Position numbers and translations under genes: made by a program
Part shown: positions 1 to 10,294 of the stretch, piece by piece
Position numbering within the stretch: the first letter of the stretch is position 1
Layout of the letters: the number at the start of each line of letters is the position of its first letter
The notes under the pieces: generated by a model
Database searches by the model: none
What the model was told of the DNA's origin: nothing
Seen by the model: only the letters and a program-made list of their open reading frames with translations
Assembly: GCA_963775685.1 (NCBI GenBank)
Contig: CAVZJV010000005.1
Coordinates: 95,465-159,464, forward strand
Origin: Candidatus Bathyarchaeota archaeon
GTDB taxonomy: Archaea; Thermoproteota; Bathyarchaeia; Bathyarchaeales; Bathycorpusculaceae
Length of the DNA stretch: 64,000 nucleotides
Direction: 5' to 3'

Positions 1-116
1 TAGCTACTTTTTGAAAACGTCTTTTTGGAAATGGCAAAAAAATTGAAAAATTCCCAGATGGGGGGGGTTATATCTGAAAGGCGTATTTTCTTTTTTCTGG
101 CGTTACATTCTTTTGC

Positions 117-350
117 CTATTTAGTGCGAAGTGTCATACGTCTAAAGAGTAAGCCCATTTGCGAAACAACTTTCTCGTTAGCATAGTATTTTTGGAAGCA
201 TTGTTCACAAATAGCCTTCATTTTCTGTGAATCTGGAATAAACCCTTCAATGTTAGAGTAAACCGTTTCACCTTTTTCAATGGTTCGGTCACACTTACCG
301 CATTTACCAGAGAACAACGCCTTTCCTTTTGTCCAAACCATCTTTACCAC
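117..350 (-). CDS. Small Zn-finger protein
   Basis: CGKC...CEQC Cys pairs, 77 aa. Confidence 0.6.
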   Translation of the reverse strand: MVKMVWTKGKALFSGKCGKCDRTIEKGETVYSNIEGFIPDSQKMKAICEQCFQKYYANEKVVSQMGLLFRRMTLRTK

Positions 351-533
351 CAGAAGTGATGATATTGGTTATGTTAGCTTTTATGTTTTTGCATCTCTCA
401 GCTTTTTCTAAGTCCCATTTGGTTTCCATAATTTAAAGGAAACGTTGAAGGAAGATGAGGCGTTATAAGAAGCAAATAGGTAACCATTAAAATGATAAGT
501 AAACAAACCCAAATTATAAAAGATTTTTTTCTA

Positions 534-1250
534 CTAAATTTCTTGTTCAGAAACGTCTTTTTGGAATAATTTTGAGCGAAGTTTGCATATTTCTTTCTCA
601 ATAGTAGCAAACTCTTCCAGCTCTTTCGAATACAATTCTCCAACCCTTTGATAAAACCATTTGTAAAAATCTTTGATTAAACATTGATATTGATTTAATA
701 CAACCTTCAAGTCAACCTCTTGATTGACACGGATGTACCTTTTAGAACCAGCACTCAATTTCTTTGAAGGTAACCTTTGCTTTTCCAACAGTATGCTTTG
801 TTTAATTTGCTGCTCTTCTCTGGAAAAATGTGTTAACAAGTAGGGAAATTCAATATGTTGGGTAATATTTCGCAAGTCTTTTATAAAAACGTAACAATCG
901 TTAGGCTCTAAAGCGTTGACTCTTGCATCATATTCTTCTTTTAGTTTTGAGTATTTCTCACAAAATCTTGAATTATGTCTAATCAAACTGAAAGTACTGG
1001 AAAGATAATTATGCAGTAGTCTTGAAAGTTCTCTAAAAAAGAGAGTACGTTCTTTTCCACTATTCCACAATGCTGAGTTGCCTTCGTAATTTGCCATTGC
1101 TAAGGATAATTCTTGATAGTTTCTGTTTACTGCATAATGAGTACTTTTAAATTGTCTAAGCATTATAACGATTTTTGTGCCTTCTAACGTTTCTTGCTTG
1201 TCAGTAAGTTCATTTAATCTTTCAACAATTTCAAATTGTTCTTGACTCAT
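534..1250 (-). CDS. Alpha-helical protein with HEPN-like RxxxxH motif
   Basis: 238-aa ORF with LHNYLSS and LRNITQH (R-x4-H) motifs. Confidence 0.6.
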   Translation of the reverse strand: MSQEQFEIVERLNELTDKQETLEGTKIVIMLRQFKSTHYAVNRNYQELSLAMANYEGNSALWNSGKERTLFFRELSRLLHNYLSSTFSLIRHNSRFCEKYSKLKEEYDARVNALEPNDCYVFIKDLRNITQHIEFPYLLTHFSREEQQIKQSILLEKQRLPSKKLSAGSKRYIRVNQEVDLKVVLNQYQCLIKDFYKWFYQRVGELYSKELEEFATIEKEICKLRSKLFQKDVSEQEI

Positions 1251-1384
1251 TATTTTTCAACATATCCTTAGTCTGTCTGACATTTAGGAACGCGCTAATA
1301 TTCAGTTTTAAGTTTTTTGGCTATTTCTACGCTGTTACAAATTTAAGACTTATTACGTTTTCAAAAAACAAAATGAGGAAAGGG

Positions 1385-2101
1385 CTATTTCTTGGCTTTT
1401 CTCCTTTTGATAAATACAATTGACAATAATGATGCAACTACGAGTATTGGCAGAATTAACCACGATGGAAACTCTGGAACTGTAGGTGTAGGAGTTGGGT
1501 TCTGGGAAGAATAAGGCGTAGCTGTCGGGTCTTGTGTTGGTGTTGCTGTCGGAGTTGCTGTAGGTGTTGGGGCAACTGTTGATGTTGGACTTGGACTTGG
1601 AGTGGTGTTATCCACGGAAGGTGACACATAAAGCACCCAATCATCAACGTTGGTAGTGAGGAAATAAATCTTGTAGCCTTGGCTACCTATCTGTGAATTC
1701 TTTAGACTGTAAGGATAAGGGTTGATTAAATCAATGCCAGTTGTGCCTGCGTTGGCGTAGCCATCATTGCCGCTGTCGCCTACCATAACATTGGTAGCTA
1801 CATCATAAATACTGTATTTTACCCATGTATATTCATAGTAACCGCTGGTGTAGTTGCAGTCCCATTGCATCCACCACATACCATTAGGGTTGGTCGCCGT
1901 CTTAGGTATGAAAACTGTAGGCACAGCATAATCTGTATTTTTGAAAGTATAGGTCGGCGAGGTCAGCGGGGAATCGGGTTGTGGATTTATCCATGGAAGA
2001 AGAGGAAAAGCATCTGCAGGTGCAATCATACAAACCGCAAAAAAGACTAATACGACAGTTACCAAACTACAAATAACCAATACTTTGTTTGCTAAACGCA
2101 T
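1385..2101 (-). CDS. Secreted surface protein with Pro/Thr linker and PEF-CTERM sorting signal
   Basis: Signal peptide, PT-rich stalk, VPEF + TM helix + KRRKAKK tail. Confidence 0.85.
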   Translation of the reverse strand: MRLANKVLVICSLVTVVLVFFAVCMIAPADAFPLLPWINPQPDSPLTSPTYTFKNTDYAVPTVFIPKTATNPNGMWWMQWDCNYTSGYYEYTWVKYSIYDVATNVMVGDSGNDGYANAGTTGIDLINPYPYSLKNSQIGSQGYKIYFLTTNVDDWVLYVSPSVDNTTPSPSPTSTVAPTPTATPTATPTQDPTATPYSSQNPTPTPTVPEFPSWLILPILVVASLLSIVFIKRRKAKK

Positions 2102-2130
2102 AACTACCGCTTCTCCCCAGTTGTAGTGTT

Positions 2131-2340
2131 ATGTTTTTAGCTATTAATAATTTTAGTAATAGTACTCACAATATACTCTACGATTCATTCTCAAATAGTA
2201 CTATGAACTTACCGAAAGAAATGAAGGAAACTTTAGGCATAACTGAGATAAAAGGCAAAATATTGTTTATCTTAGAAGGCTCTCAAGTCATAGTGCAAAA
2301 AGCCTATTTTTATCTGTCAATTTTGACCATTAAAAAATGA
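2131..2340 (+). pseudogene. AbrB/MazE-like DNA-binding protein, possibly degenerate
   Basis: MNLPKEMKETLGI...KILFILEGSQVIVQKA resembles the AbrB swapped-hairpin pattern; start uncertain. Confidence 0.45.
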
Positions 2341-2384
2341 CAGAGAGATATCGGTTTTCTCCATAAAAAAATATATATATGCAC

Positions 2385-2942
2385 TTATCCAGCGTACAAT
2401 TCCCTTAACCTTTTGCTCTCTTCACACTTAACAATCTTGGAATATTCAACAATAAACTCTCTAATTTCACTATAATTAAGAGAGGTTACACGTTCCTTAT
2501 TGTTAATATCACTATTATGAGTAGTAGTATATTGAGAGGTTAATAGTAATTGTATTAATTGTTCTAATTGTGAAAAACCGCAAATTTGAATTTTGTCGGC
2601 TTGAGCAAGGTCTATAACGCTGTTATAGTTTTGTGGTCTATTGGTTAATAATACGTGGATGTGAAATTTATCGGCTATGTGGCAATCTTGGAATCTGGGT
2701 TTAACGCTGTCTAAATACCATTGCGTTCTTATGGGATAATCTGCTTCGCAATGTTTGTTTTCCACGTAAATTTTATATGAGCCAACAGTAAAAATAAAAT
2801 CTACTCCGACCCCTCTTTCCCTTTTCCATAGGTGTGGAATCCAAGAATTGTGATAAGTTAAATATTTGCTTAGTTTTTTGGCTTGAGTTTTTTTGAAAAT
2901 AGAGTACTCTTGGTTTATGCCTATCGTGTCGAATTTGCTCAA
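2385..2942 (-). CDS. PD-(D/E)XK nuclease-fold protein
   Basis: GVDFIF...IYVENKH (D...ExK) motif. Confidence 0.65.
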   Translation of the reverse strand: MSKFDTIGINQEYSIFKKTQAKKLSKYLTYHNSWIPHLWKRERGVGVDFIFTVGSYKIYVENKHCEADYPIRTQWYLDSVKPRFQDCHIADKFHIHVLLTNRPQNYNSVIDLAQADKIQICGFSQLEQLIQLLLTSQYTTTHNSDINNKERVTSLNYSEIREFIVEYSKIVKCEESKRLRELYAG

Positions 2943-2999
2943 GTATTGGCTTGTTATCGTTTTTTAGCACTCTCCCTTTTTAGGGTGTCACACTACTAT

Positions 3000-3182
3000 A
3001 TAAACTTTACGTTTGTAAATGTTTTGGTTGTCATATGTAAAGGTTCAGCATCCATCCACTTTTTAATCAAGTGATTAAAAAACGAACCCTAAAAGCCTTT
3101 ACATATGTAAAAGGTTTAGTTTACATAAAACCATAACATTTATATATTAGTGTATGCATTATAGTGCATAGAGGTTTACACT
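3000..3182. promoter_or_regulatory. Divergent control region with several palindromic operators and a TATA box
   Basis: TTTAC-N4-GTAAA at 3006-3019 and 3098-3111; TTTTTAATCA-AG-TGATTAAAAA at 3060-3081; ATTTATATA near 3138; near-palindrome TATGCATTATAGTGCATA before the RHH gene. Confidence 0.7.
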
Positions 3183-3527
3183 ATGTCAAGTAAAACTAAT
3201 CAAACAGTTTATGTTCGTAAAGGCTCTCAAGCAGTTTTGAAACAATTAAGTGAAAAGACCCGATTAAGTCAGAGTGAAATTTTGGCTAATTGGCTCTCTG
3301 CTATAGAGGTAGTTATGAACCGTTTTTCAGACTTGTCATATGACCGTTTAAGTTTTGCTTCATATCCGACAGAGAGAAAAGAAGTCAAAACGCTGTTAGC
3401 ACCTATAATTAGTGGTGAAGTTCAATTCCAGCTTGATAACACAAGCGAATCTGTAAATGAGGCGAGAGCAGACCACGCAGTGACTAAAGACCTTGAAAGA
3501 ATAGCTCAAAAGGCAAAGGTGAACTAA
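3183..3527 (+). CDS. Ribbon-helix-helix (CopG-like) protein with C-terminal extension
   Basis: QTVYVRKGSQAVLKQLSEKTRLSQSEIL pattern. Confidence 0.7.
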   Translation: MSSKTNQTVYVRKGSQAVLKQLSEKTRLSQSEILANWLSAIEVVMNRFSDLSYDRLSFASYPTERKEVKTLLAPIISGEVQFQLDNTSESVNEARADHAVTKDLERIAQKAKVN

Positions 3528-3528
3528 A

Positions 3529-4203
3529 ATGACCCCTGAAGAAATTGCAGAACAATGGAAAAAAGAAGGCGAAGCACGAATTAACGGTCAACAGCGAACC
3601 GAAGTTATAAAAATTAACGTTGATAATCAAGCCATTACCGATACAATCAACGAAAACAAGAAACTTAAAGCAGAAATTGAAGAGGGAAAGGATGCAACAG
3701 ACTTATTTACTGAATTAAAAGAAAAAGCAAGCGTAGAATTAACGTCTCTCGGTGTGAATACTGAGGTCTCAGATTTAAAGAGCAAAAACGATTTAGATAG
3801 AGCAATAACGACAATTCAGAAATTAAAGGCTGGAAAAGGCTCAAATTCTAATTATCCAAGCATCCCAAGTGGAACAGTGCCGTTATCAAGCCAAACGCCT
3901 GCTAAAAAGTCTGGATATTCAAACGTTGAACAAATGGTGGATGACGCAAACCAGAACAAGGAAATAAGAAACGCATTGCTCTCTAAATGCTTAAAAGGCG
4001 TAAAAGAAGGGCATTTAATTCTCAAAAGCTATGAGTTGCCACTACCAGAAACTCAAACCTCAGATTTAATTGAGAATGGGAAATTATCAAAAAAACCTGA
4101 CGTTCTCGGAATTCAACATATGCACCGAACTAAGAAACTAAGGGAACGTGCTGAAAAAGGCGACTCTCAAGCAATTGACCTTTTGAACAGTGGAAATTAT
4201 TAA
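3529..4203 (+). CDS. Hypothetical coiled-coil protein of the element
   Basis: 224-aa ORF tightly coupled to neighbours, AGGTGA RBS. Confidence 0.75.
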   Translation: MTPEEIAEQWKKEGEARINGQQRTEVIKINVDNQAITDTINENKKLKAEIEEGKDATDLFTELKEKASVELTSLGVNTEVSDLKSKNDLDRAITTIQKLKAGKGSNSNYPSIPSGTVPLSSQTPAKKSGYSNVEQMVDDANQNKEIRNALLSKCLKGVKEGHLILKSYELPLPETQTSDLIENGKLSKKPDVLGIQHMHRTKKLRERAEKGDSQAIDLLNSGNY

Positions 4204-4206
4204 AAG

Positions 4207-4698
4207 GTGTTATGTATGGGTAAAAGACAAAAAATAGCATTTAACGAAAATAGCGAAGTGGTTTTTCTAACCATTGACACAAACACAAACGAAACCATTG
4301 AGACGAAAACCCCTTTAGAAATGGGTCTCTGGAAAAGCAGAGAATTCTATTACATTTTTAAGAGATGTGCCTTAAATCCAGTTTCACTTCAAAACATAGA
4401 AGGATTTTTCATTCAAAAAGTGCTTTTTCGTTGTCCTAATAAAGACGGTCTCGAATTCCATTACTTTTACTTCGAAAAAGGGTTTAGTTTGCCTTGTTGT
4501 AGAATCTTAGACCCACGGTTAAACAATTTGTGCGGTTTAACTTTCCAAGTTTCGACAAATGACCCAACATTCACTAAAAATATAGGTAAACCTAAACGTT
4601 TGTCTAATACAATCGTTAAAAAAGCGATAATTGACAAAAAATATAATGGCATTGATGTTTTAGGATGCTATAGTGAAGACGGCTCGGAGAGGGTTTAA
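4207..4698 (+). CDS. Hypothetical protein
   Basis: 163-aa ORF in the operon; start probably ATG near 4216. Confidence 0.65.
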   Translation: MLCMGKRQKIAFNENSEVVFLTIDTNTNETIETKTPLEMGLWKSREFYYIFKRCALNPVSLQNIEGFFIQKVLFRCPNKDGLEFHYFYFEKGFSLPCCRILDPRLNNLCGLTFQVSTNDPTFTKNIGKPKRLSNTIVKKAIIDKKYNGIDVLGCYSEDGSERV

Positions 4699-4699
4699 A

Positions 4700-4782
4700 G
4701 TGACTGTGTTTAGCTGTGTCTCTTTGGTTTCTTTGAGTCATATCGGGTTTCACCTATTTCACTACACGGCTAAGCACTTCAC
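4700..4782 (+). other. Intergenic stem-loop, 14-bp stem with two G-U pairs
   Basis: GTGTTTAGCTGTGT (4706-4719) pairs with ACACGGCTAAGCAC (4764-4777). Confidence 0.55.
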
Positions 4783-4807
4783 AATTTAAAATTAAGGTGA
4801 TTAGTCT

Positions 4808-5176
4808 ATGCCTTTAAAAAATTGCAAAAAGTGCGGAAAGCCATTTCGGGCTAATACTGGTCAAACGCATTGCCATAATCCTTGTTACCCAGAGAGTGAA
4901 AAAACTTTCAATCATTGCAGTGAGTGCGGTAGAAAACTAATTAATGGTTTTTGGTCTCGAAAACCTGAAAGTGAAAGGATATGCAGTTTTTGCGATGACC
5001 GACATAAAAAATTAAGGGTAACTCAAAAAGAAGACGCACGGAAAAAAACGCTTAGAAAATGCTCAGAATGTGGTGAATATTCGTATTTAGTGCTTAAAGA
5101 ATCGCTTTGCCGTGCTTGTTTCAGAAAAAAAGAGAATCCCAGAATTATATCAATAAAAGAGGTTAAAAATTTATGA
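4808..5176 (+). CDS. Multi-Zn-finger protein
   Basis: Six CxxC-type motifs, basic, AGGTGA RBS. Confidence 0.75.
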   Translation: MPLKNCKKCGKPFRANTGQTHCHNPCYPESEKTFNHCSECGRKLINGFWSRKPESERICSFCDDRHKKLRVTQKEDARKKTLRKCSECGEYSYLVLKESLCRACFRKKENPRIISIKEVKNL

Positions 5177-5298
5177 GTGAAATTCAAAAAGAAAAATGCG
5201 TTTGTGGTTACTCTGAGACCACTTTAAAACTAACTGAATGCACTCAATTAGAAGTTTGCAGTTATTGCGGCTCTATTAGAAGGAAATTTCAGTTTTGA
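5173..5298 (+). CDS. 41-aa Zn-ribbon microprotein (not in ORF track)
   Basis: MSEIQKEKCVCGY...VCSYCGSIRRKFQF; ATGA overlap with the upstream stop, GAGGT RBS. Confidence 0.6.
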   Translation: MSEIQKEKCVCGYSETTLKLTECTQLEVCSYCGSIRRKFQF

Positions 5299-5309
5299 GA
5301 GTGGTAAAT

Positions 5310-5459
5310 ATGGAAGACATAAACAATTTAGAACCTAAAAAACAGAAAAAAGCTAAAACGTTTGAAGAGTGGGAAGCATCTCACAACTTTAAAGACGTTG
5401 ACCCCAAATTAGTTTCTAAGGCAATTTTAGCTGAATATGATAATCGAGAGCAGTCTTGA
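5310..5459 (+). CDS. 49-aa microprotein (not in ORF track)
   Basis: MEDINNLEPKKQKKAKTFEEWE...; GAGTGG RBS, continues the operon. Confidence 0.55.
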   Translation: MEDINNLEPKKQKKAKTFEEWEASHNFKDVDPKLVSKAILAEYDNREQS

Positions 5460-5519
5460 AAAATTTCACGTATATTTTGACGTAGGGCTTTATAAGTGAC
5501 TGTTAAGAGTCAAGATATT

Positions 5520-5588
5520 TAGTGGTTGACTAATCGCCTCAAGGTTTCTGTAAAACTTTAGTCAATTGTGAAGGTTAGTCAACCACTA
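5520..5588. repeat. Perfect 14-bp inverted repeat with 41-bp spacer
   Basis: TAGTGGTTGACTAA (5520-5533) / TTAGTCAACCACTA (5575-5588); extra TTAGTCAA at 5558-5565. Confidence 0.9.
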
Positions 5589-5614
5589 TATTATTGAATT
5601 AAACAAAAAGTGAG

Positions 5615-5839
5615 GTGAAAACTATGCAAAAAATACAAAGTTTCGAATTTGTCTCCGTTAATCACACAAGAAAAACCGTGACCTTAGTTCTCACTCACAT
5701 CTATAACCCTCAATGCAAAGGTTGCAGAGAGAATTTAGTTGAAGCAAAACAGATTGCGAAAGATTACGGTTATACATTCATTCTGAAAGAGCCAAAAGAA
5801 GATTTGCCTTTTCTCAGAAGTGATTTCAATGAACGTTAA
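5615..5839 (+). CDS. Small CxxC protein
   Basis: GAGGTG RBS before ATG at 5624; CKGC motif. Confidence 0.6.
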   Translation: MKTMQKIQSFEFVSVNHTRKTVTLVLTHIYNPQCKGCRENLVEAKQIAKDYGYTFILKEPKEDLPFLRSDFNER

Positions 5840-5849
5840 CTCTTAGTTT

Positions 5850-6346
5850 TTTAACATCCACTCTAATTTTTTTTGCCAAACTAAAACCCCATTTCATTAA
5901 GTATTAATCCATAAACACATATTGTGAAATTAAACCCAAAATAATCCCTATTACGATATTAGACCTAATTATGTACCTATGGACTACTGAACTCTCGAAT
6001 TCAAGTCGAATCTAATTGGCGGGGGGGTATTTAGCCTTTTTTCAACCAATAGACCCCAAATTACAAATACTTTTCTCTTGAAGTTTAAATATTTTACTTC
6101 GAAACCTTTGTTTAATGTCCCTCTACTAAGAGAGACCCTCATTAAATAGTAGTTTTCTACAGTTTATGACACGCGGAATATTATTTAACATCCATCATAA
6201 GAGACCATTAACAGAGACATACACGGCTCTTTTTATGGTAACAATTAGAAACTTAACGGTCTTAGACTGTAGTTAATAGGGGTTTAATGAATGGTCTCGG
6301 CTCTGTTTGGGGTCAACCTTAGCCAAAAAAATTAATTTAACATCCA
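5850..6346. repeat. Non-coding region with direct repeats and nested inverted repeats
   Basis: TTTAACATCCA at 5850, 6184 and 6336; nested pairings 6052-6060/6306-6314, 6132-6146/6283-6298, 6157-6166/6263-6272. Confidence 0.75.
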
Positions 6347-6396
6347 CTTGAGAAACTTGGACAAATAAGAAGAGAAAAGAGAGCCTAAAAAAAGGC

Positions 6397-7638
6397 TTAA
6401 TCAATCTTCACTTTTTCGTTTTGCTGTTCTTTCAGTGCTTCTAAGACTATTCTCTTTATCGTGTTTGGGTCTGTTGCTGTGTTGTTTCTTATGAAGTCTT
6501 CAAGTTTAGCGATTCTTTCCAAGTCGGCTTTTCTCTCGGCTTTTCGTGTTTCTATTTCGACTTGCTGAGAGCCTATCAGGTTGTTTAGGTTTTCCTTGAT
6601 TTTTACTAAGTCTTCTCTGCTCTGCATTCCGTTGATTGAGACGAATTCAAAAGCCTTAGTGTAAGCGTCTTTTATGGTTTGTTCGTCATAGCCATAGTGA
6701 CCCCTTGAGCCTAAACGCTGGTGACCCATCATAAGGTCTTTAACTTCGCTTTTTATGTCGGCTCTGAGCAATGCCGAATTATAGAGACTTCTTAGATGCT
6801 TAGTTTTGAATTCTTTTGCTCTCTCTGAGCCTAAAGCCTTCTCTGCTAAGTTTTTCATTGATTCGTGAATTCGTCTAACCTCAATAGGTGCGTCAATTTC
6901 TGTTTTCTCTTTTGTCTCTGGGTCTATGTCTTCAATTTTTGCGTTTTTGGTTTGAGAAGTGAAGATAAAGCCTTTTTTCGGATTGCCTTTTTCGGCTAAT
7001 AGGTCTCTTAAATCGTGTACTGCTTCGAAACTTAAACAAGTGGCTTGTATTTCGCCAGTTTTTTCTCTGGGTTTCTCTAAAAAGTAGTGTGTGCTTATTG
7101 GGGTTTCATAGAATCCTTTCAAGTCTTCAATGCGAAACTCTGTTACGTCAACCTCAGAAAAACCCGACTGACTGAGAGCCAACAATAAGCAACGGTCTCT
7201 TAATGAGCCGTGGCTATACATTGCTTTAACATCATCCAGCTTTAGAGTCAATTTGTTTTTTATTCTGGTTGACTGAGTGCTGTTCCAGTCTCCACGTCTT
7301 AAATTTAGTTTTCCAGTGGTACGACCAAAAAAAGACGCTATTGTTCTTAGCTCTGATTTTATGCTTAGTGGTGCTAAAGTGGTTTCTGTCTCTCGTTTCT
7401 GTTTGTATTCTCTGAATTTCGACTCAAAAAAAGACCGTGCGGCTAAGTCTTTTGAATTCAAGTCTTCAATGCGTCTTTTTATTTGCTCTGTTGGGGTCAT
7501 TTCGATAAAGTCATTCCAGCTTAAAATCCCTCTTAAATAATTGCCTTTTGACTTTTCAGTGAGACCGTTAAGCCACTGGTTAACGTATTGGTCTTTTAGC
7601 AGTTCTGCAATTTTTGCCTTTATTTCAGTGTTGACCAT
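6397..7638 (-). CDS. Tyrosine recombinase/integrase
   Basis: N-terminal SAM-like core-binding region; LRDRCLL..SQSG, REKT, KHLR, MMGH and Tyr motifs; C-terminal coiled coil. Confidence 0.92.
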   Translation of the reverse strand: MVNTEIKAKIAELLKDQYVNQWLNGLTEKSKGNYLRGILSWNDFIEMTPTEQIKRRIEDLNSKDLAARSFFESKFREYKQKRETETTLAPLSIKSELRTIASFFGRTTGKLNLRRGDWNSTQSTRIKNKLTLKLDDVKAMYSHGSLRDRCLLLALSQSGFSEVDVTEFRIEDLKGFYETPISTHYFLEKPREKTGEIQATCLSFEAVHDLRDLLAEKGNPKKGFIFTSQTKNAKIEDIDPETKEKTEIDAPIEVRRIHESMKNLAEKALGSERAKEFKTKHLRSLYNSALLRADIKSEVKDLMMGHQRLGSRGHYGYDEQTIKDAYTKAFEFVSINGMQSREDLVKIKENLNNLIGSQQVEIETRKAERKADLERIAKLEDFIRNNTATDPNTIKRIVLEALKEQQNEKVKID

Positions 7639-7803
7639 CTAAGCCACTCCGAGAGCCTTTAGAAATTTGGCTTTATTGAATTTCTTATTATCTATTTCGA
7701 AATGTAGCATTAAATCTTTTGTGAATTCTTGCTTAGTGTTTGCAGTGGTTGACTTTAGGAATTCGGCAAAAAAGCAATAGTGTCTTTTTGTGAAATAGGT
7801 CAT
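7639..7803 (-). CDS. 54-aa virus-like microprotein coupled to the integrase (not in ORF track)
   Basis: MTYFTKRHYCFFAEFLK...HFEIDNKKFNKAKFLKALGVA; GGAGTGG RBS; stop abuts the integrase ATG. Confidence 0.7.
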   Translation of the reverse strand: MTYFTKRHYCFFAEFLKSTTANTKQEFTKDLMLHFEIDNKKFNKAKFLKALGVA

Positions 7804-7804
7804 T

Positions 7805-7870
7805 TTAAGCCACTCCATAAGCCTTTAAAACTGCTTTTCTTGTTTTGGGGTCTAATTGGTAACGGCTCAA
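7805..7870 (-). CDS. Possible 21-aa leader peptide
   Basis: TTG start, MSRYQLDPKTRKAVLKAYGVA; its 3' end duplicates that of the next ORF. Confidence 0.35.
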   Translation of the reverse strand: MSRYQLDPKTRKAVLKAYGVA

Positions 7871-7979
7871 TTTAACTCTAAAATCTATAGAATTAGAGAG
7901 ACGTTGATTTAATAGCAAAAAACTATTAAGAGTTTTAGCGATTAAATAGGCTGTTCCATATATGAAAGAAAAAAAGGGG

Positions 7980-8393
7980 TTATCCTTGCGTTTTCAGTTT
8001 TTTCCAGTCAAGATACGAAATAACAACCAATATTACTGTCCAGATTGCCCAGAAGGCGAAGGCGGGACTGATAAAATACAGTGGCAAAGCTATTACGCGG
8101 TTAGCAATTGAAGCAGCTATTACCAGCAGAGGAGCCCAAGCAAGTTTCTTTAGCAGCCCAAACAAAGCCACACCATACACGGCTGAAACTAATAGCAGAA
8201 TCACAGTTCCCGCAATCAACGCACTATAATTGCCTATAACAGTTGCGATATAGCCTGTGTTTAGTGAAGAGTCTCGAGAAGCAGCGTTAACCCACCAGAA
8301 TGCTACGTTGCCGATGTCACCGATTATGTTGATGGCAACAAAAATGATCAAGACTGTGTGCAATTTATCTAATTTTTCAATCTTTGTTTTCAT
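7980..8393 (-). CDS. Four-TM membrane protein
   Basis: Hydrophobic helices, 137 aa. Confidence 0.8.
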   Translation of the reverse strand: MKTKIEKLDKLHTVLIIFVAINIIGDIGNVAFWWVNAASRDSSLNTGYIATVIGNYSALIAGTVILLLVSAVYGVALFGLLKKLAWAPLLVIAASIANRVIALPLYFISPAFAFWAIWTVILVVISYLDWKKLKTQG

Positions 8394-8440
8394 AGATTAC
8401 CGTTTCGCCCTCTTCTATATTTAAAACTTGCTAGCAGATG

Positions 8441-10294
8441 CTAACTTCCCATCATGGAGTAGTCCACTTGGTAGATGCGCAGGTTGCTATCAGAGTAGAC
8501 AGTTGTCAAAAACCCCACAGAGTCAAAATGCGATATACAATTTGATGTGTAGTAGCTGATTTCTTCGTTACCGACATACACATAAGACACGTTGAATTCT
8601 CGAATTACCGACGCTAATTCTGTTATAGTACCATTGTAAGCTGAGTCGATTTCTTTTTCGCGCTGCCACACTTGATCCAAAGGTATTCCATGACCATATG
8701 GCCAATAAATATACGACGACACTCGCACCCGACCCGCAATCATAGTTGGAGGCTCATGAATACCATAATAAGTCAAAAACACCGAGTTCTGCGGCGTGTT
8801 GTCCCGAACCCACAAACCAAGTTGGTATTCACTCCAACTAACACCTGTGTAGTCGGTCCCAACATTGTATACTATAACGCTCGATGTTGTGATGACTGAA
8901 AACAAAACCAACGCCACCACCAAAATACGCCTGGTTTTAGCCAACATGATGCCGCTAAGCACTGCGATGAGTACCCAGGCAAACATGAAGAACTTGTACA
9001 TGTCCCAGCTCCAAGGCGTCAACAAAAGCATATTTGGAATTAAGAAAAGTATCAACAGAGTGATTTTGAGGTATTGGTGTCCGCGTTTGAAGAAAGAGAT
9101 GATTGCCAAGGCAAAGGGGATTCCTAGATTTAGTGGGTAAAAAACAAAGGGATTATTATGAACATAGGTGGCAAAAAAGTCCAGGTTAAAACTAATCGAG
9201 AACGATGACCCGCTAAAAAGGATGAAAGGCAAGGCAAAGATAGTGGGTAACAAAAAATACAGGTAACTAAGTTTGATTTTGCGTAGGTTAATCAGCAGAC
9301 AAATGGCGTAGACGACGTAGCAACAGAAGAACGCAACATTGTGGAATTCATACGCTAAACCTGTCAAGACTCCTGCGAGAATTAAGCGATTTCTGTCATC
9401 CATATCCCGTAGCAAAGCCAGAACCAAAGCAAACGCTGGCAACCCAATAAGCAAGGGGCGCTGCTGCAAGAGATTATCAAACATTGAGGGCAACCCAAAG
9501 GTTTGGCCAAACTGATAGATGTAATTCTGCGTTGGAGTAAACGTGCCATTGAGAAGGGCTGAGAACAAACCTAAATAGCTCAATCCCCAACCGAAAACGC
9601 TGATAACTGTAGCAACAACTGCCGCCCGCCGACCATAAGGTCGCGCCAACGCGTAAACCGCAAAACCAAAAAACAGAATGAACAAAGCATTAAGGACAGG
9701 CATCAAGGTAGGCAGGTATCCGTAGACTTTTTCAAGGATAGCCGTATGGAAGTCGACAAAGTAGTGGTAGCTAAGAGGTGTACCCAAATAGTTTGGGTTT
9801 TGAGGTGGGAAGTTGCCGTTGTTTAAGCTTTCGATAATTTCGTAATGGAAAGGTGTGTCCTGCCAGTTAGAGCCCGTGACGACTATGCCGTACTGGTCGC
9901 CCCGCCAAACACTGAGACCCAACAAGGCAATTGAAACAAGAAATATAACTGCGAAGAGAAGCAAGCTGGTTTTCTTAATCTGTCTCACTTTAAAAAACAT
10001 CTGGGGTTTTAGTGGTTCGCCCTTCTTGTAAACTACCCAAGCATACAACGTTGTTAAAGCCAGAAAACAAACGAGTATAGTTTGGCTTGAGTAACCTGCT
10101 GCCAACGACGCGTAATAGATGAGTTGGACGGACACTAAAACACTAAAGAGAGGTATAAAAGCCCATGTTTCATAGGATTTCAAGCGGAAAAAACGGATAC
10201 CAATTAGACCTGGAACCAGAAAAGTGAAGAGAAAGGCGGCCACAAGACCAACGATGAATGAACCAAACCCCGCAGAAGTCAACACTAAAAACAC
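8441..10294 (-). CDS. Polytopic GT-C-like membrane protein (YYY/DUF2298-like putative glycosyltransferase)
   Basis: Many TM helices; D.PFH...FPPQNP..G.PLSYHYF loop; soluble C-terminus with WVRDNTP and YVYVG..E. Confidence 0.75.
   Translation of the reverse strand: MFLVLTSAGFGSFIVGLVAAFLFTFLVPGLIGIRFFRLKSYETWAFIPLFSVLVSVQLIYYASLAAGYSSQTILVCFLALTTLYAWVVYKKGEPLKPQMFFKVRQIKKTSLLLFAVIFLVSIALLGLSVWRGDQYGIVVTGSNWQDTPFHYEIIESLNNGNFPPQNPNYLGTPLSYHYFVDFHTAILEKVYGYLPTLMPVLNALFILFFGFAVYALARPYGRRAAVVATVISVFGWGLSYLGLFSALLNGTFTPTQNYIYQFGQTFGLPSMFDNLLQQRPLLIGLPAFALVLALLRDMDDRNRLILAGVLTGLAYEFHNVAFFCCYVVYAICLLINLRKIKLSYLYFLLPTIFALPFILFSGSSFSISFNLDFFATYVHNNPFVFYPLNLGIPFALAIISFFKRGHQYLKITLLILFLIPNMLLLTPWSWDMYKFFMFAWVLIAVLSGIMLAKTRRILVVALVLFSVITTSSVIVYNVGTDYTGVSWSEYQLGLWVRDNTPQNSVFLTYYGIHEPPTMIAGRVRVSSYIYWPYGHGIPLDQVWQREKEIDSAYNGTITELASVIREFNVSYVYVGNEEISYYTSNCISHFDSVGFLTTVYSDSNLRIYQVDYSMMGS

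Follow-up and report, generated by a model that had tools for sequence, protein, structure and literature searches.

The 557-nucleotide (nt) intergenic stretch at positions 5840–6396 of the 64,000-nt window (the whole stretch of DNA that was analysed, from contig CAVZJV010000005.1 of a Candidatus Bathyarchaeota archaeon) is the principal, putatively cis-acting, non-coding region of a provirus-like element, and it lies inside that element. It is flanked by a plus-strand open reading frame (ORF) of 74 amino acids (aa) and by the stop codon of a minus-strand ORF of 413 aa, a tyrosine integrase gene. What is conserved here is a two-stem hairpin, accompanied by three short boxes and a block of conserved sequence (block 1), within an undescribed provirus family. 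The anatomy of the region, its conservation, the covariation of its hairpin and its position inside the element can be read directly from the DNA. An initial annotation of the window had drawn attention to a nested foldback of about 260 nt beside the integrase; that conspicuous structure proves to be specific to one copy of the element, and the conserved signal is the 36-nt hairpin within it.

Boxes, block 1 and hairpin

Fetched loci carry L labels and genomes carry G labels, G000 being the source genome (3.06 Mb; contigs C5, C11 and C14). This one genome harbors two paralogous elements of ca. 9–10 kb, namely the element of the window, which spans from position 16388 of L041 to about window 7960 (G000:C5), and a second, syntenic element at C14:1357517–1366600 with a gene of 359–405 aa at its left end and the integrase at its right end (tblastx), hereafter the paralog. 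The region aligns only in part between the two, the alignment comprising the boxes, block 1 and a 65-nt core (86% identical) that contains the middle box and the hairpin. Its conserved features in the window are as follows.

5847–5861, plus strand: box R1 (TTTTTTAACATCCAC), 8 nt past the stop codon of the 74-aa ORF
5906–6045, no strand: conserved block 1, with TATTACG, GGACTA, TCGAATT, a G7 run and GCC followed by a T run; aligns with the paralog
6181–6195, plus strand: box R2 (TTATTTAACATCCAT), its TTTA exactly 20 nt before the ACC of the hairpin in the window copy, the paralog and L101
6204–6239, no strand: conserved two-stem hairpin, ACCAT-TAAC-AGAG-loop-CTCT-TTTT-ATGGT
6333–6347, plus strand: box R3 (TAATTTAACATCCAC), 50 nt beyond the integrase stop codon

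The sequence TTTAACATCCA starts at 5850, 6184 and 6336, each time on the plus strand, and the triple repeat, already pointed out in the initial annotation, exceeds chance: allowing at most one mismatch, 4 matches to the 12-mer are found in the window, where 0.53 would be expected and 0/100 shuffles reach 4. Box identity within the window element is 12/12, 11/12 and 12/12, any difference being confined to the last base. The paralog carries three TTTAGAATCCA boxes at the corresponding places (after its last plus-strand gene, before its hairpin and about 50 nt beyond its integrase stop codon), and the boxes of the two elements differ at the same two positions, AC versus GA, giving the 12-nt box two versions, TTTAACATCCAC and TTTAGAATCCAC. 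Such concerted, element-specific change is, by analogy, the pattern of iterons and other specificity sites. Close to its left end the paralog has a fourth TTTAGAATCCAC, which lies within a host ferredoxin-like ORF and was taken as chance. Membership of a miniature inverted-repeat transposable element or other dispersed repeat was rejected, the sole other match in the 3.06-Mb genome being the paralogous element.

Environmental variants of the locus give a view of its rate of change. Small shares are present in eleven public DNA runs, and no RNA run was listed; contigs from two of the four runs examined cover 5572–6094 and 5847–6063 at ca. 92% identity, and none extends over 6100–6380, a gap that carries no weight as evidence. 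Across 5906–6012 (107 nt) these contigs have 0 substitutions and one inserted base, compared with ca. 7% differences in the neighbouring ORF and changes at 4/12 core positions of box R1 in the two contigs, so block 1 is under constraint and the box is fast-changing. The window copy, the paralog, L101 and L034 all have a similar G-run block upstream of their hairpins. Folded locally, block 1 is not stable (z 0 to +1.4), and small conserved ORFs (36 aa and 25 aa, overlapping) were rejected as its content, since their starts and lengths differ and only non-synonymous differences are seen. A gapped block-1 pattern had 0 matches in the JGI metagenomes, nhmmer profiles, whether of block 1, of block 2 or of the entire region, had no match in six distant elements, and DNA similarity to the region in 100 relatives was limited to two short matches at chance level.

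Folded as RNA, the hairpin of the window reads ACCAU-UAAC-AGAG-(10-nt loop)-CUCU-UUUU-AUGGU, with −8.8 kcal/mol and z −3.87, and the paralog has the same fold (ACCGU...ACGGU, an A-U to G-C compensation) with −10.6 kcal/mol and z −2.27. Only two copies of the pattern GA[AG]ACC[AG]TTA...A[CT]GGTA exist in the 3.06-Mb genome, one in each of these elements, and among the fetched loci it is otherwise found only in L101, a distant syntenic element of another genus, where it occupies the same relative place. A looser scan of integrase 3' flanks added the hairpins of L034 and L019. In these three loci the outer stem is ACCGU/ACGGU and the inner stem UCCCC/GGGGA, CUCUC/GAGAG or UCUC/GAGA, versus AGAG/CUCU here; 37/37 cells pair, and the same two-stem hairpin folds with −12 to −16 kcal/mol.

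A covariance model built from L101, L034 and L019 was run on 151 genomes sampled from the family and found matches in 12 of them, at 0 to 3 copies per genome, the three best with E values of about 1e-6; none of its copies lies in host genes of G000. The hairpins of L107 and L110 are situated ca. 180–250 nt 3' of integrase genes (PF00589, 3e-12 and 1.3e-8) and that of L106 lies 3' of a 429-aa P-loop gene, while the other matches have no integrase within 1.5 kb and the weaker ones may be false. The outer stem ACCRT/AYGGT, with compensating inner stems, is thereby shared by at least five further elements (L101, L034, L019, L107 and L110), 100–470 nt 3' of integrase homologs. Over ten rows, in an alignment fitted to the model, 84/89 cells are paired, with C-G and U-A alternating at each of the four inner pairs. 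The window and paralog hairpins would belong to the same family on the basis of pattern, spacing, G-run block, position and reading by eye. A covariance model made from these two copies retrieved no further copy, and an exact search with an 18-mer of the hairpin loop gave 0 matches in IMG/VR and 5 in GTDB genomes, all Alistipes/Rikenellaceae and taken as chance.

Second, weaker copies of the form ACGGT-N3-ACCGT ... ACGGT were observed in L101 (2948–3010, minus strand) and L034 (2901–2960, minus strand). That of L101 is located 3' of the ATPase gene, at the opposite end of the element, and in a circle the attachment site and the integrase would lie between the two copies.

Integrase homologs were found in 20/120 genomes of the genus. 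The integrases of the window and the paralog are just 25% identical, yet their boxes and hairpins are near-identical; the flank of the L012 integrase, 65–70% identical to that of the window, is without box, hairpin or DNA similarity. The integrases of L101, L034/L104 and L019/L105 are 76–81% identical to one another and all have the hairpin, L104 having only the integrase in common with L101 and L105 also a short match to the 122-aa zinc-finger ORF of the window element. The hairpin is thus often, though not always, a neighbour of the integrase 3' end, modules having been exchanged. A structured element does accompany some integrase modules, at a tenth of the size initially proposed. The last ca. 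45 residues of the two integrases (window 6397–6540 and L002 2026–2170) are ca. 60% identical (...FIRN..DPNTIK...EKVKI), with the tail also recognised in L012 and L017, a pattern suggestive of recombination at a point within the 3' end of the integrase gene.

Exchange of this kind is central to a reading, judged improbable, in which the region has no dedicated function and is a mosaic junction, its boxes being short homology patches kept alike by gene conversion. The boxes do stand at points of insertion difference (the 74-aa ORF before R1 here, a 64-aa ORF before R3 in the paralog), and the two integrases are alike only in their last ca. 45 residues, suggesting a crossover there. However, the 107 nt without substitution adjoin a coding region with ca. 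7% differences, and the compensating hairpin changes across genera, together with the exact 20-nt spacing, point to selection.

The long foldback and the ends of the element

The foldback described in the initial annotation was placed directly downstream of the integrase, correctly so with regard to the ORF at 6397–7638 (minus strand), and all the complementary segments listed for it are present.

6052–6314, no strand: nested foldback, specific to the window copy and not conserved in the paralog

The pairings 6052–6060/6306–6314 and 6201–6209/6290–6298 are perfect (9/9 each), as is 6210–6216/6301–6307 (7/7), which crosses the second of these so that the two are mutually exclusive. One indel is contained in 6132–6146/6283–6298, one G-T in 6157–6166/6263–6272 and one A-C mismatch in 6203–6211/6253–6261, and the nested helices are recovered in minimum-energy folds of 6040–6330. 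With RNA parameters the foldback reaches z −2.97 on the plus strand (1/200 shuffles as good) and −3.69 on the minus strand (0/200); with DNA parameters the values are −1.96 (6/200 shuffles) and −2.12 (3/200). Among 426 segments of 291 nt from the 64 kb, after regression on G+C content, it ranks 22nd on the plus strand and 2nd on the minus strand. The foldback is real and somewhat unusual, modestly better than chance, and within reach of a by-eye scan of 64 kb.

The homologous stretch of the paralog is indistinguishable in stability from its shuffles (z −0.18, 82/200 shuffles as good; −0.34, 72/200). When 13 integrase 3' flanks were folded at the same offset, with 40 shuffles each, only the window copy and the unrelated, G+C-rich L015 fell below z −3, the remaining 11/13 (z −2.4 to +2.0) lying within the shuffled range. 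The large foldback is an accident or embellishment of one copy: it exists and folds better than its shuffles, but only modestly so and without a counterpart in the paralog. Covariation in the 3' flanks, which had been suggested as a check, recovered the small hairpin (6204–6239, the inner region of the foldback) with a compensating inner stem beside the integrases of L101, L034, L019, L107 and L110, but not the ~260-nt structure.

A different kind of structure was encountered in L015 and L031 (G049:C3 and C17), where G+C-rich, very long perfect hairpins stand 180–450 nt 3' of integrase homologs in an A+T-rich genome. They reach z of ca. −6 and −154 kcal/mol over 450 nt, are without tRNA or Rfam match, and have their first ca. 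200 nt in common before diverging.

The ends of the element were located by an empty-site test on 29 loci of related genomes, fetched by the PNPOx-like gene to the left of the element. The PNPOx gene is followed directly by the 137-aa host gene (window 7980–8393) in 17/29 loci and by the next host gene (617 aa) in a further 10/29, with neither within reach in 2/29, such that host genes at window 7980–10294 adjoin the PNPOx gene in 27/29. Empty-site alignment places one junction ca. 1612 bases before the window and the other near window 7960, and because these 27/29 empty sites fix the junctions elsewhere, the 557-nt region is internal to the element. A near-palindromic GCGATTAAAT motif has copies at both element ends, and the attachment site of the circular form would lie ca. 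320 nt upstream of the integrase start codon, outside the 557-nt region. Identification of the region as attP, attL or attR of the adjacent integrase was rejected, as it is not at an element/host junction; attachment-site identity was likewise rejected for its motif, which does not track integrase type, the element ends carrying the different motif.

These results bear on the proposal that the adjacent integrase or a Rep protein uses the region as a folded single-stranded recombination site of the integron attC or CTX attP kind, or as a rolling-circle single-strand origin. The better-than-shuffled fold of the window copy and the recurrence of the small hairpin beside integrase homologs speak in its favour, but the host junctions, near 7960 and ca. 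1612 bases before the window, carry a different motif, integrases of 25% identity have nearly the same boxes and hairpin while one of 65–70% identity (L012) has neither, the paralog is without the foldback, and the DNA-parameter z is only about −2. The proposal is considered highly improbable. The folded recombination site of the initial annotation is not upheld, the junctions lying elsewhere in 27/29 loci and the foldback being absent in the paralog; an integron attC-type site in particular was rejected on the z values of the paralog (−0.18/−0.34) and the DNA-parameter values here (−1.96/−2.12). Its suggestion of a single-strand origin fares no better, and a rolling-circle origin was rejected, as no HUH-type Rep was found among the element ORFs by Pfam and PHROGs matches, which remote homologs could escape. 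The hairpin loops share only CATAC or TATC, and no known nick motif was recognised in them.

Possible functions of the region

The preferred reading, put forward tentatively from sequence comparison, is that the region may serve as the cis-acting protein-binding region of the element, most probably as a replication origin or priming site, or else as a maintenance or regulatory site; both the protein binding and the role in replication share this tentative standing. The working parts would be the three element-specific 12-nt boxes, the block of ca. 110 nt ending in the G7 run and the 36-nt hairpin. A sequence-specific protein of the element would bind the boxes, and the hairpin, extruded from DNA or formed in a single strand, would be the place where that protein or a host factor acts. 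The likeliest action would be the starting or priming of replication of the excised circle, with packaging or control of the convergent transcripts being less likely.

With three boxes per element, the main non-coding region contains multiple replicon-specific direct repeats, as looked for in an iteron-type origin. At the same intergenic position the distant relatives L100 (27 nt × 2) and L101 (23 nt × 2 and 16 nt × 2) have tandem direct repeats of their own, which fits the replication-origin reading. No known replication initiator was recognised among the element proteins by Pfam or PHROGs, so a host-dependent or novel origin is plausible. Furthermore, the 74-aa ORF and the integrase gene converge on the 557-nt stretch, and a promoter for them is therefore not needed there. 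A promoter matrix of 16 positions, comprising the B recognition element (BRE) and TATA box, was learnt from 41 host tRNA upstream regions, its own sites scoring mostly 8–15 bits; the six boxes score 0.8–6.4 bits without a purine-rich BRE and were rejected as canonical archaeal promoters. They were also rejected as origin recognition boxes (ORB; a TCCAnTGGAAA-type dyad and G string), sharing only GTGGA with ORB-like genomic sequences, and the single genomic site that joins box and ORB-like features is inside a gene.

A number of observations weigh against an origin of this type. The boxes are spaced 334 and 152 nt apart, unlike the tight phased arrays of classical iterons, and the triple-box layout is confined to the two elements of G000 (2/23 integrase flanks), being found in 0/5 distant elements scanned (of six, L099 being without room); in 2/6 distant relatives only 37–50 nt follow the integrase. 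No candidate box-binding protein was identified among the element proteins, and between the two elements the ribbon-helix-helix proteins share only 35% identity over 48 residues. As for the hairpin, the 84/89 paired cells come from the alignment fitted to the model, with some weak matches maybe false, and the model of L101, L034 and L019 misses the window and paralog hairpins at E ≤ 1. On the modelled strand there are 6 U-G wobbles versus 1 C-A cell, an excess that gives a weak hint of RNA or of a strand-specific single strand rather than duplex recognition, though the hairpin, being nearly palindromic, is compatible with either strand and either molecule.

The main rival to the replication reading, itself somewhat unlikely, takes the region to encode one or more small non-coding RNAs, with the boxes as shared promoter or operator elements. 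Candidate transcripts would be an RNA of block 1 ending at the T6 run at 6038–6043, a hairpin-containing RNA, or a short antisense RNA spanning the stop codon of the integrase gene. Every box holds a TATA-like TTTAAC or TTTAGA after A/T-rich DNA, the distance from R1 to the GCC and T run is similar in the two elements (193 and 198 nt), and the inner stem covaries by way of U-G intermediates, as counted above. RNAalifold in addition pairs R2 with the downstream GGGGTTTAAT or GGGTTCTTAGT, with two compensated pairs, but this pairing is circular, the structure being predicted from the same two-sequence alignment. The promoter scores of the boxes, 0.8–6.4 bits without a purine-rich BRE against mostly 8–15, and the absence of a stable fold in block 1 (z ca. 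0 to +1.4) argue against such RNAs; a start ca. 25 nt past R2 would land in the 5' arm of the hairpin, and the orientation of the hairpin relative to the integrase varies, L107 having the same sense and the others the opposite one. Rfam and ARAGORN detected no RNA gene in the region, the best E value in 5440–6420 being 0.38 (a plant microRNA model, on a different hairpin), and Rfam returned nothing in 7 related loci. Of the integrase-associated structured RNA envisaged in the initial annotation, what remains is a small covarying hairpin that recurs beside some integrases, but the 260-nt structure is not conserved.

A further, unlikely account holds that the hairpin and the T/A runs are transcription stop or RNA 3'-end signals of the convergent genes, the rest being spacer conserved by recent exchange. 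Convergent genes have their 3' ends at the region, related hairpins are found 3' of integrase genes and also of ATPase-type genes (L101 2948–3010; L106), and runs of 4–6 T come before or after several hairpins. Archaeal termination, however, is known to depend on oligo-T rather than on a hairpin, and the T runs here are on inconsistent sides and strands. In addition, an invariant outer stem across integrases 25–45% identical would be unexpected for a mere terminator, the 0 to 3 model copies per genome include none in host genes of G000, and three element-specific boxes are left unexplained.

Looking beyond the replication reading of this one region, the TTTAAC box together with the two-stem hairpin (ACCRT/AYGGT with a freely compensating inner stem) could constitute an undescribed class of cis-element, a proposition that is rather doubtful as it stands. 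If true, the class would belong to a family of uncharacterised proviruses from one archaeal family, in which it would travel with tyrosine-integrase modules and also follow the packaging-ATPase gene on its 3' side. Its action would be that of a structured nucleic acid, whether as a strand-specific hairpin for priming or origin function in elements with no recognisable replication protein of their own, or as a small RNA governing integrase expression, and the element-specific boxes would set which element responds. In uncultured archaea, where small integrated elements are almost wholly unannotated, such a non-coding module is the most direct handle on the control of replication and integration. 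The region provides a defined fragment for origin and transcript work, as well as a searchable signature for more such elements.

The provirus-like element among known systems

The element and those of its parts that flank the region are listed below.

1–7960, no strand: part of the provirus-like element within the window; total ca. 9.6 kb, starting ca. 1612 bases before the window
5615–5839, plus strand: 74-aa ORF, last of the plus-strand gene set; absent in the paralog, no Pfam or PHROG match
6397–7638, minus strand: tyrosine integrase, 413 aa; PF00589 E 1.3e-4 (below the curated cut-off), PHROG 216 'integrase' E 8.9e-7
7905–7960, no strand: right end of the element and host junction, likely an attachment-site arm, with GCGATTAAAT-type motifs

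Both paralogs have an FtsK/HerA-type packaging-like ATPase at one end and the tyrosine integrase at the other, and the same gene order was observed in related elements of G131, G020, G413 (two), G001 and G344, none of which matches known phages or plasmids. The 405-aa ATPase possesses a Walker A motif. Its predicted structure, modelled from six homologs (mean predicted local distance difference test score 69.7), gave Foldseek E values of 1e-7 to 3e-9 against the STIV2 B204 packaging NTPase, HerA and the Haloarcula virus PH1 ATPase; since the model resembles viral packaging ATPases, the 9.6-kb element can be regarded as provirus-like on the strength of this predicted fold. A profile search of the ATPase against the PDB gave no E value below 0.68, and neither region nor ATPase had any match (zero) in the phage and plasmid collections searched. 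G+C content is lower over the first 8 kb of the window than over the rest. The tRNAs of the window are of archaeal type, and the four that reach the Rfam gathering score are all outside the region.

With 89% identity between the two copies, the gene for a 185-aa protein (window 2385–2942, minus strand) is the best conserved of the element. The protein has a D...E-x-K motif (VENKHC) as in PD-(D/E)xK nucleases. Its family amounts to five clusters among 5.8 billion proteins, one of the four other members being encoded on an 8.9-kb contig and one on a 19-kb contig, and searches with the family alignment gave 116 pattern matches in the JGI metagenomes and 17 in IMG/VR, with 0 confirmed in either. 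Used as an anchor across the genus, the 122-aa zinc-finger ORF had convincing matches in the two copies of this genome only. A 59-aa ORF (window 7639–7818, minus strand) ends exactly at the integrase start and has no family match; it is kept (34–43% identity, tblastx) upstream of the integrases in L098, L099, L100 and L102, and is perhaps a small, excisionase-like integrase partner. The element also encodes a ribbon-helix-helix protein of 114 aa (weak match).

Upstream of the 74-aa ORF an inverted repeat occupies window 5517–5591, with 26-nt arms (81% complementary) and a 23-nt spacer. At z −4.7 to −5.6 this palindrome is the strongest local structure near the region, and the segment of ca. 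390 nt that contains it and the 74-aa ORF is wholly absent from the paralog. At the genome level, no mcrA was found in G000, nor any archaeal amoA, but the amoA control also matched nowhere. Window 63046 (G000:C5:158510) and G000:C11:80103 have identical contexts in opposite orientation, likewise tRNA-Ser at C5:140635 and C11:84771, which suggests either redundancy in the assembly or a large repeat, the end of C5 being the same DNA as part of C11 or a duplicate of it.

Compared with known systems, the region shares with integron attC and CTX attP the presence of imperfect inverted repeats adjoining a tyrosine recombinase gene. It differs in lying off the recombination junction and in the size of its conserved part, a 30–36-nt hairpin versus a bulged attC of 60–140 nt, and the integrase, judged by PF00589 alone, is not of the IntI type. 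Three short boxes in the same orientation, putatively protein-binding, in an element that encodes a packaging-type ATPase, recall the R sites of lambda cosB and other repeated packaging signals, whereas here no terminase small-subunit-like protein or cos/pac site is evident, and the ATPase is of the FtsK/HerA type and not a terminase. The operator repeats bound by F55 of SSV1 are likewise identical short boxes at several places of a provirus, and a ribbon-helix-helix gene is present here (weak match); the SSV1 sites are located at several promoters, unlike the boxes here, which lie between convergent genes and off good promoters by the host matrix.

The closest likeness is to origins that combine iterons with a hairpin, among them those of pMV158 (bind and nic loci in its double-strand origin), the geminiviruses (iterons beside the origin stem-loop) and the archaeal plasmid pRN1 (a stem-loop origin). 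While the boxes here are dispersed (334 and 152 nt) and not tandem, and no recognisable Rep or primase gene or conserved nick-site sequence accompanies them, the region resembles these origins in that the main non-coding region of a small circular element combines short direct repeats, specific to each replicon, with an adjacent conserved hairpin.

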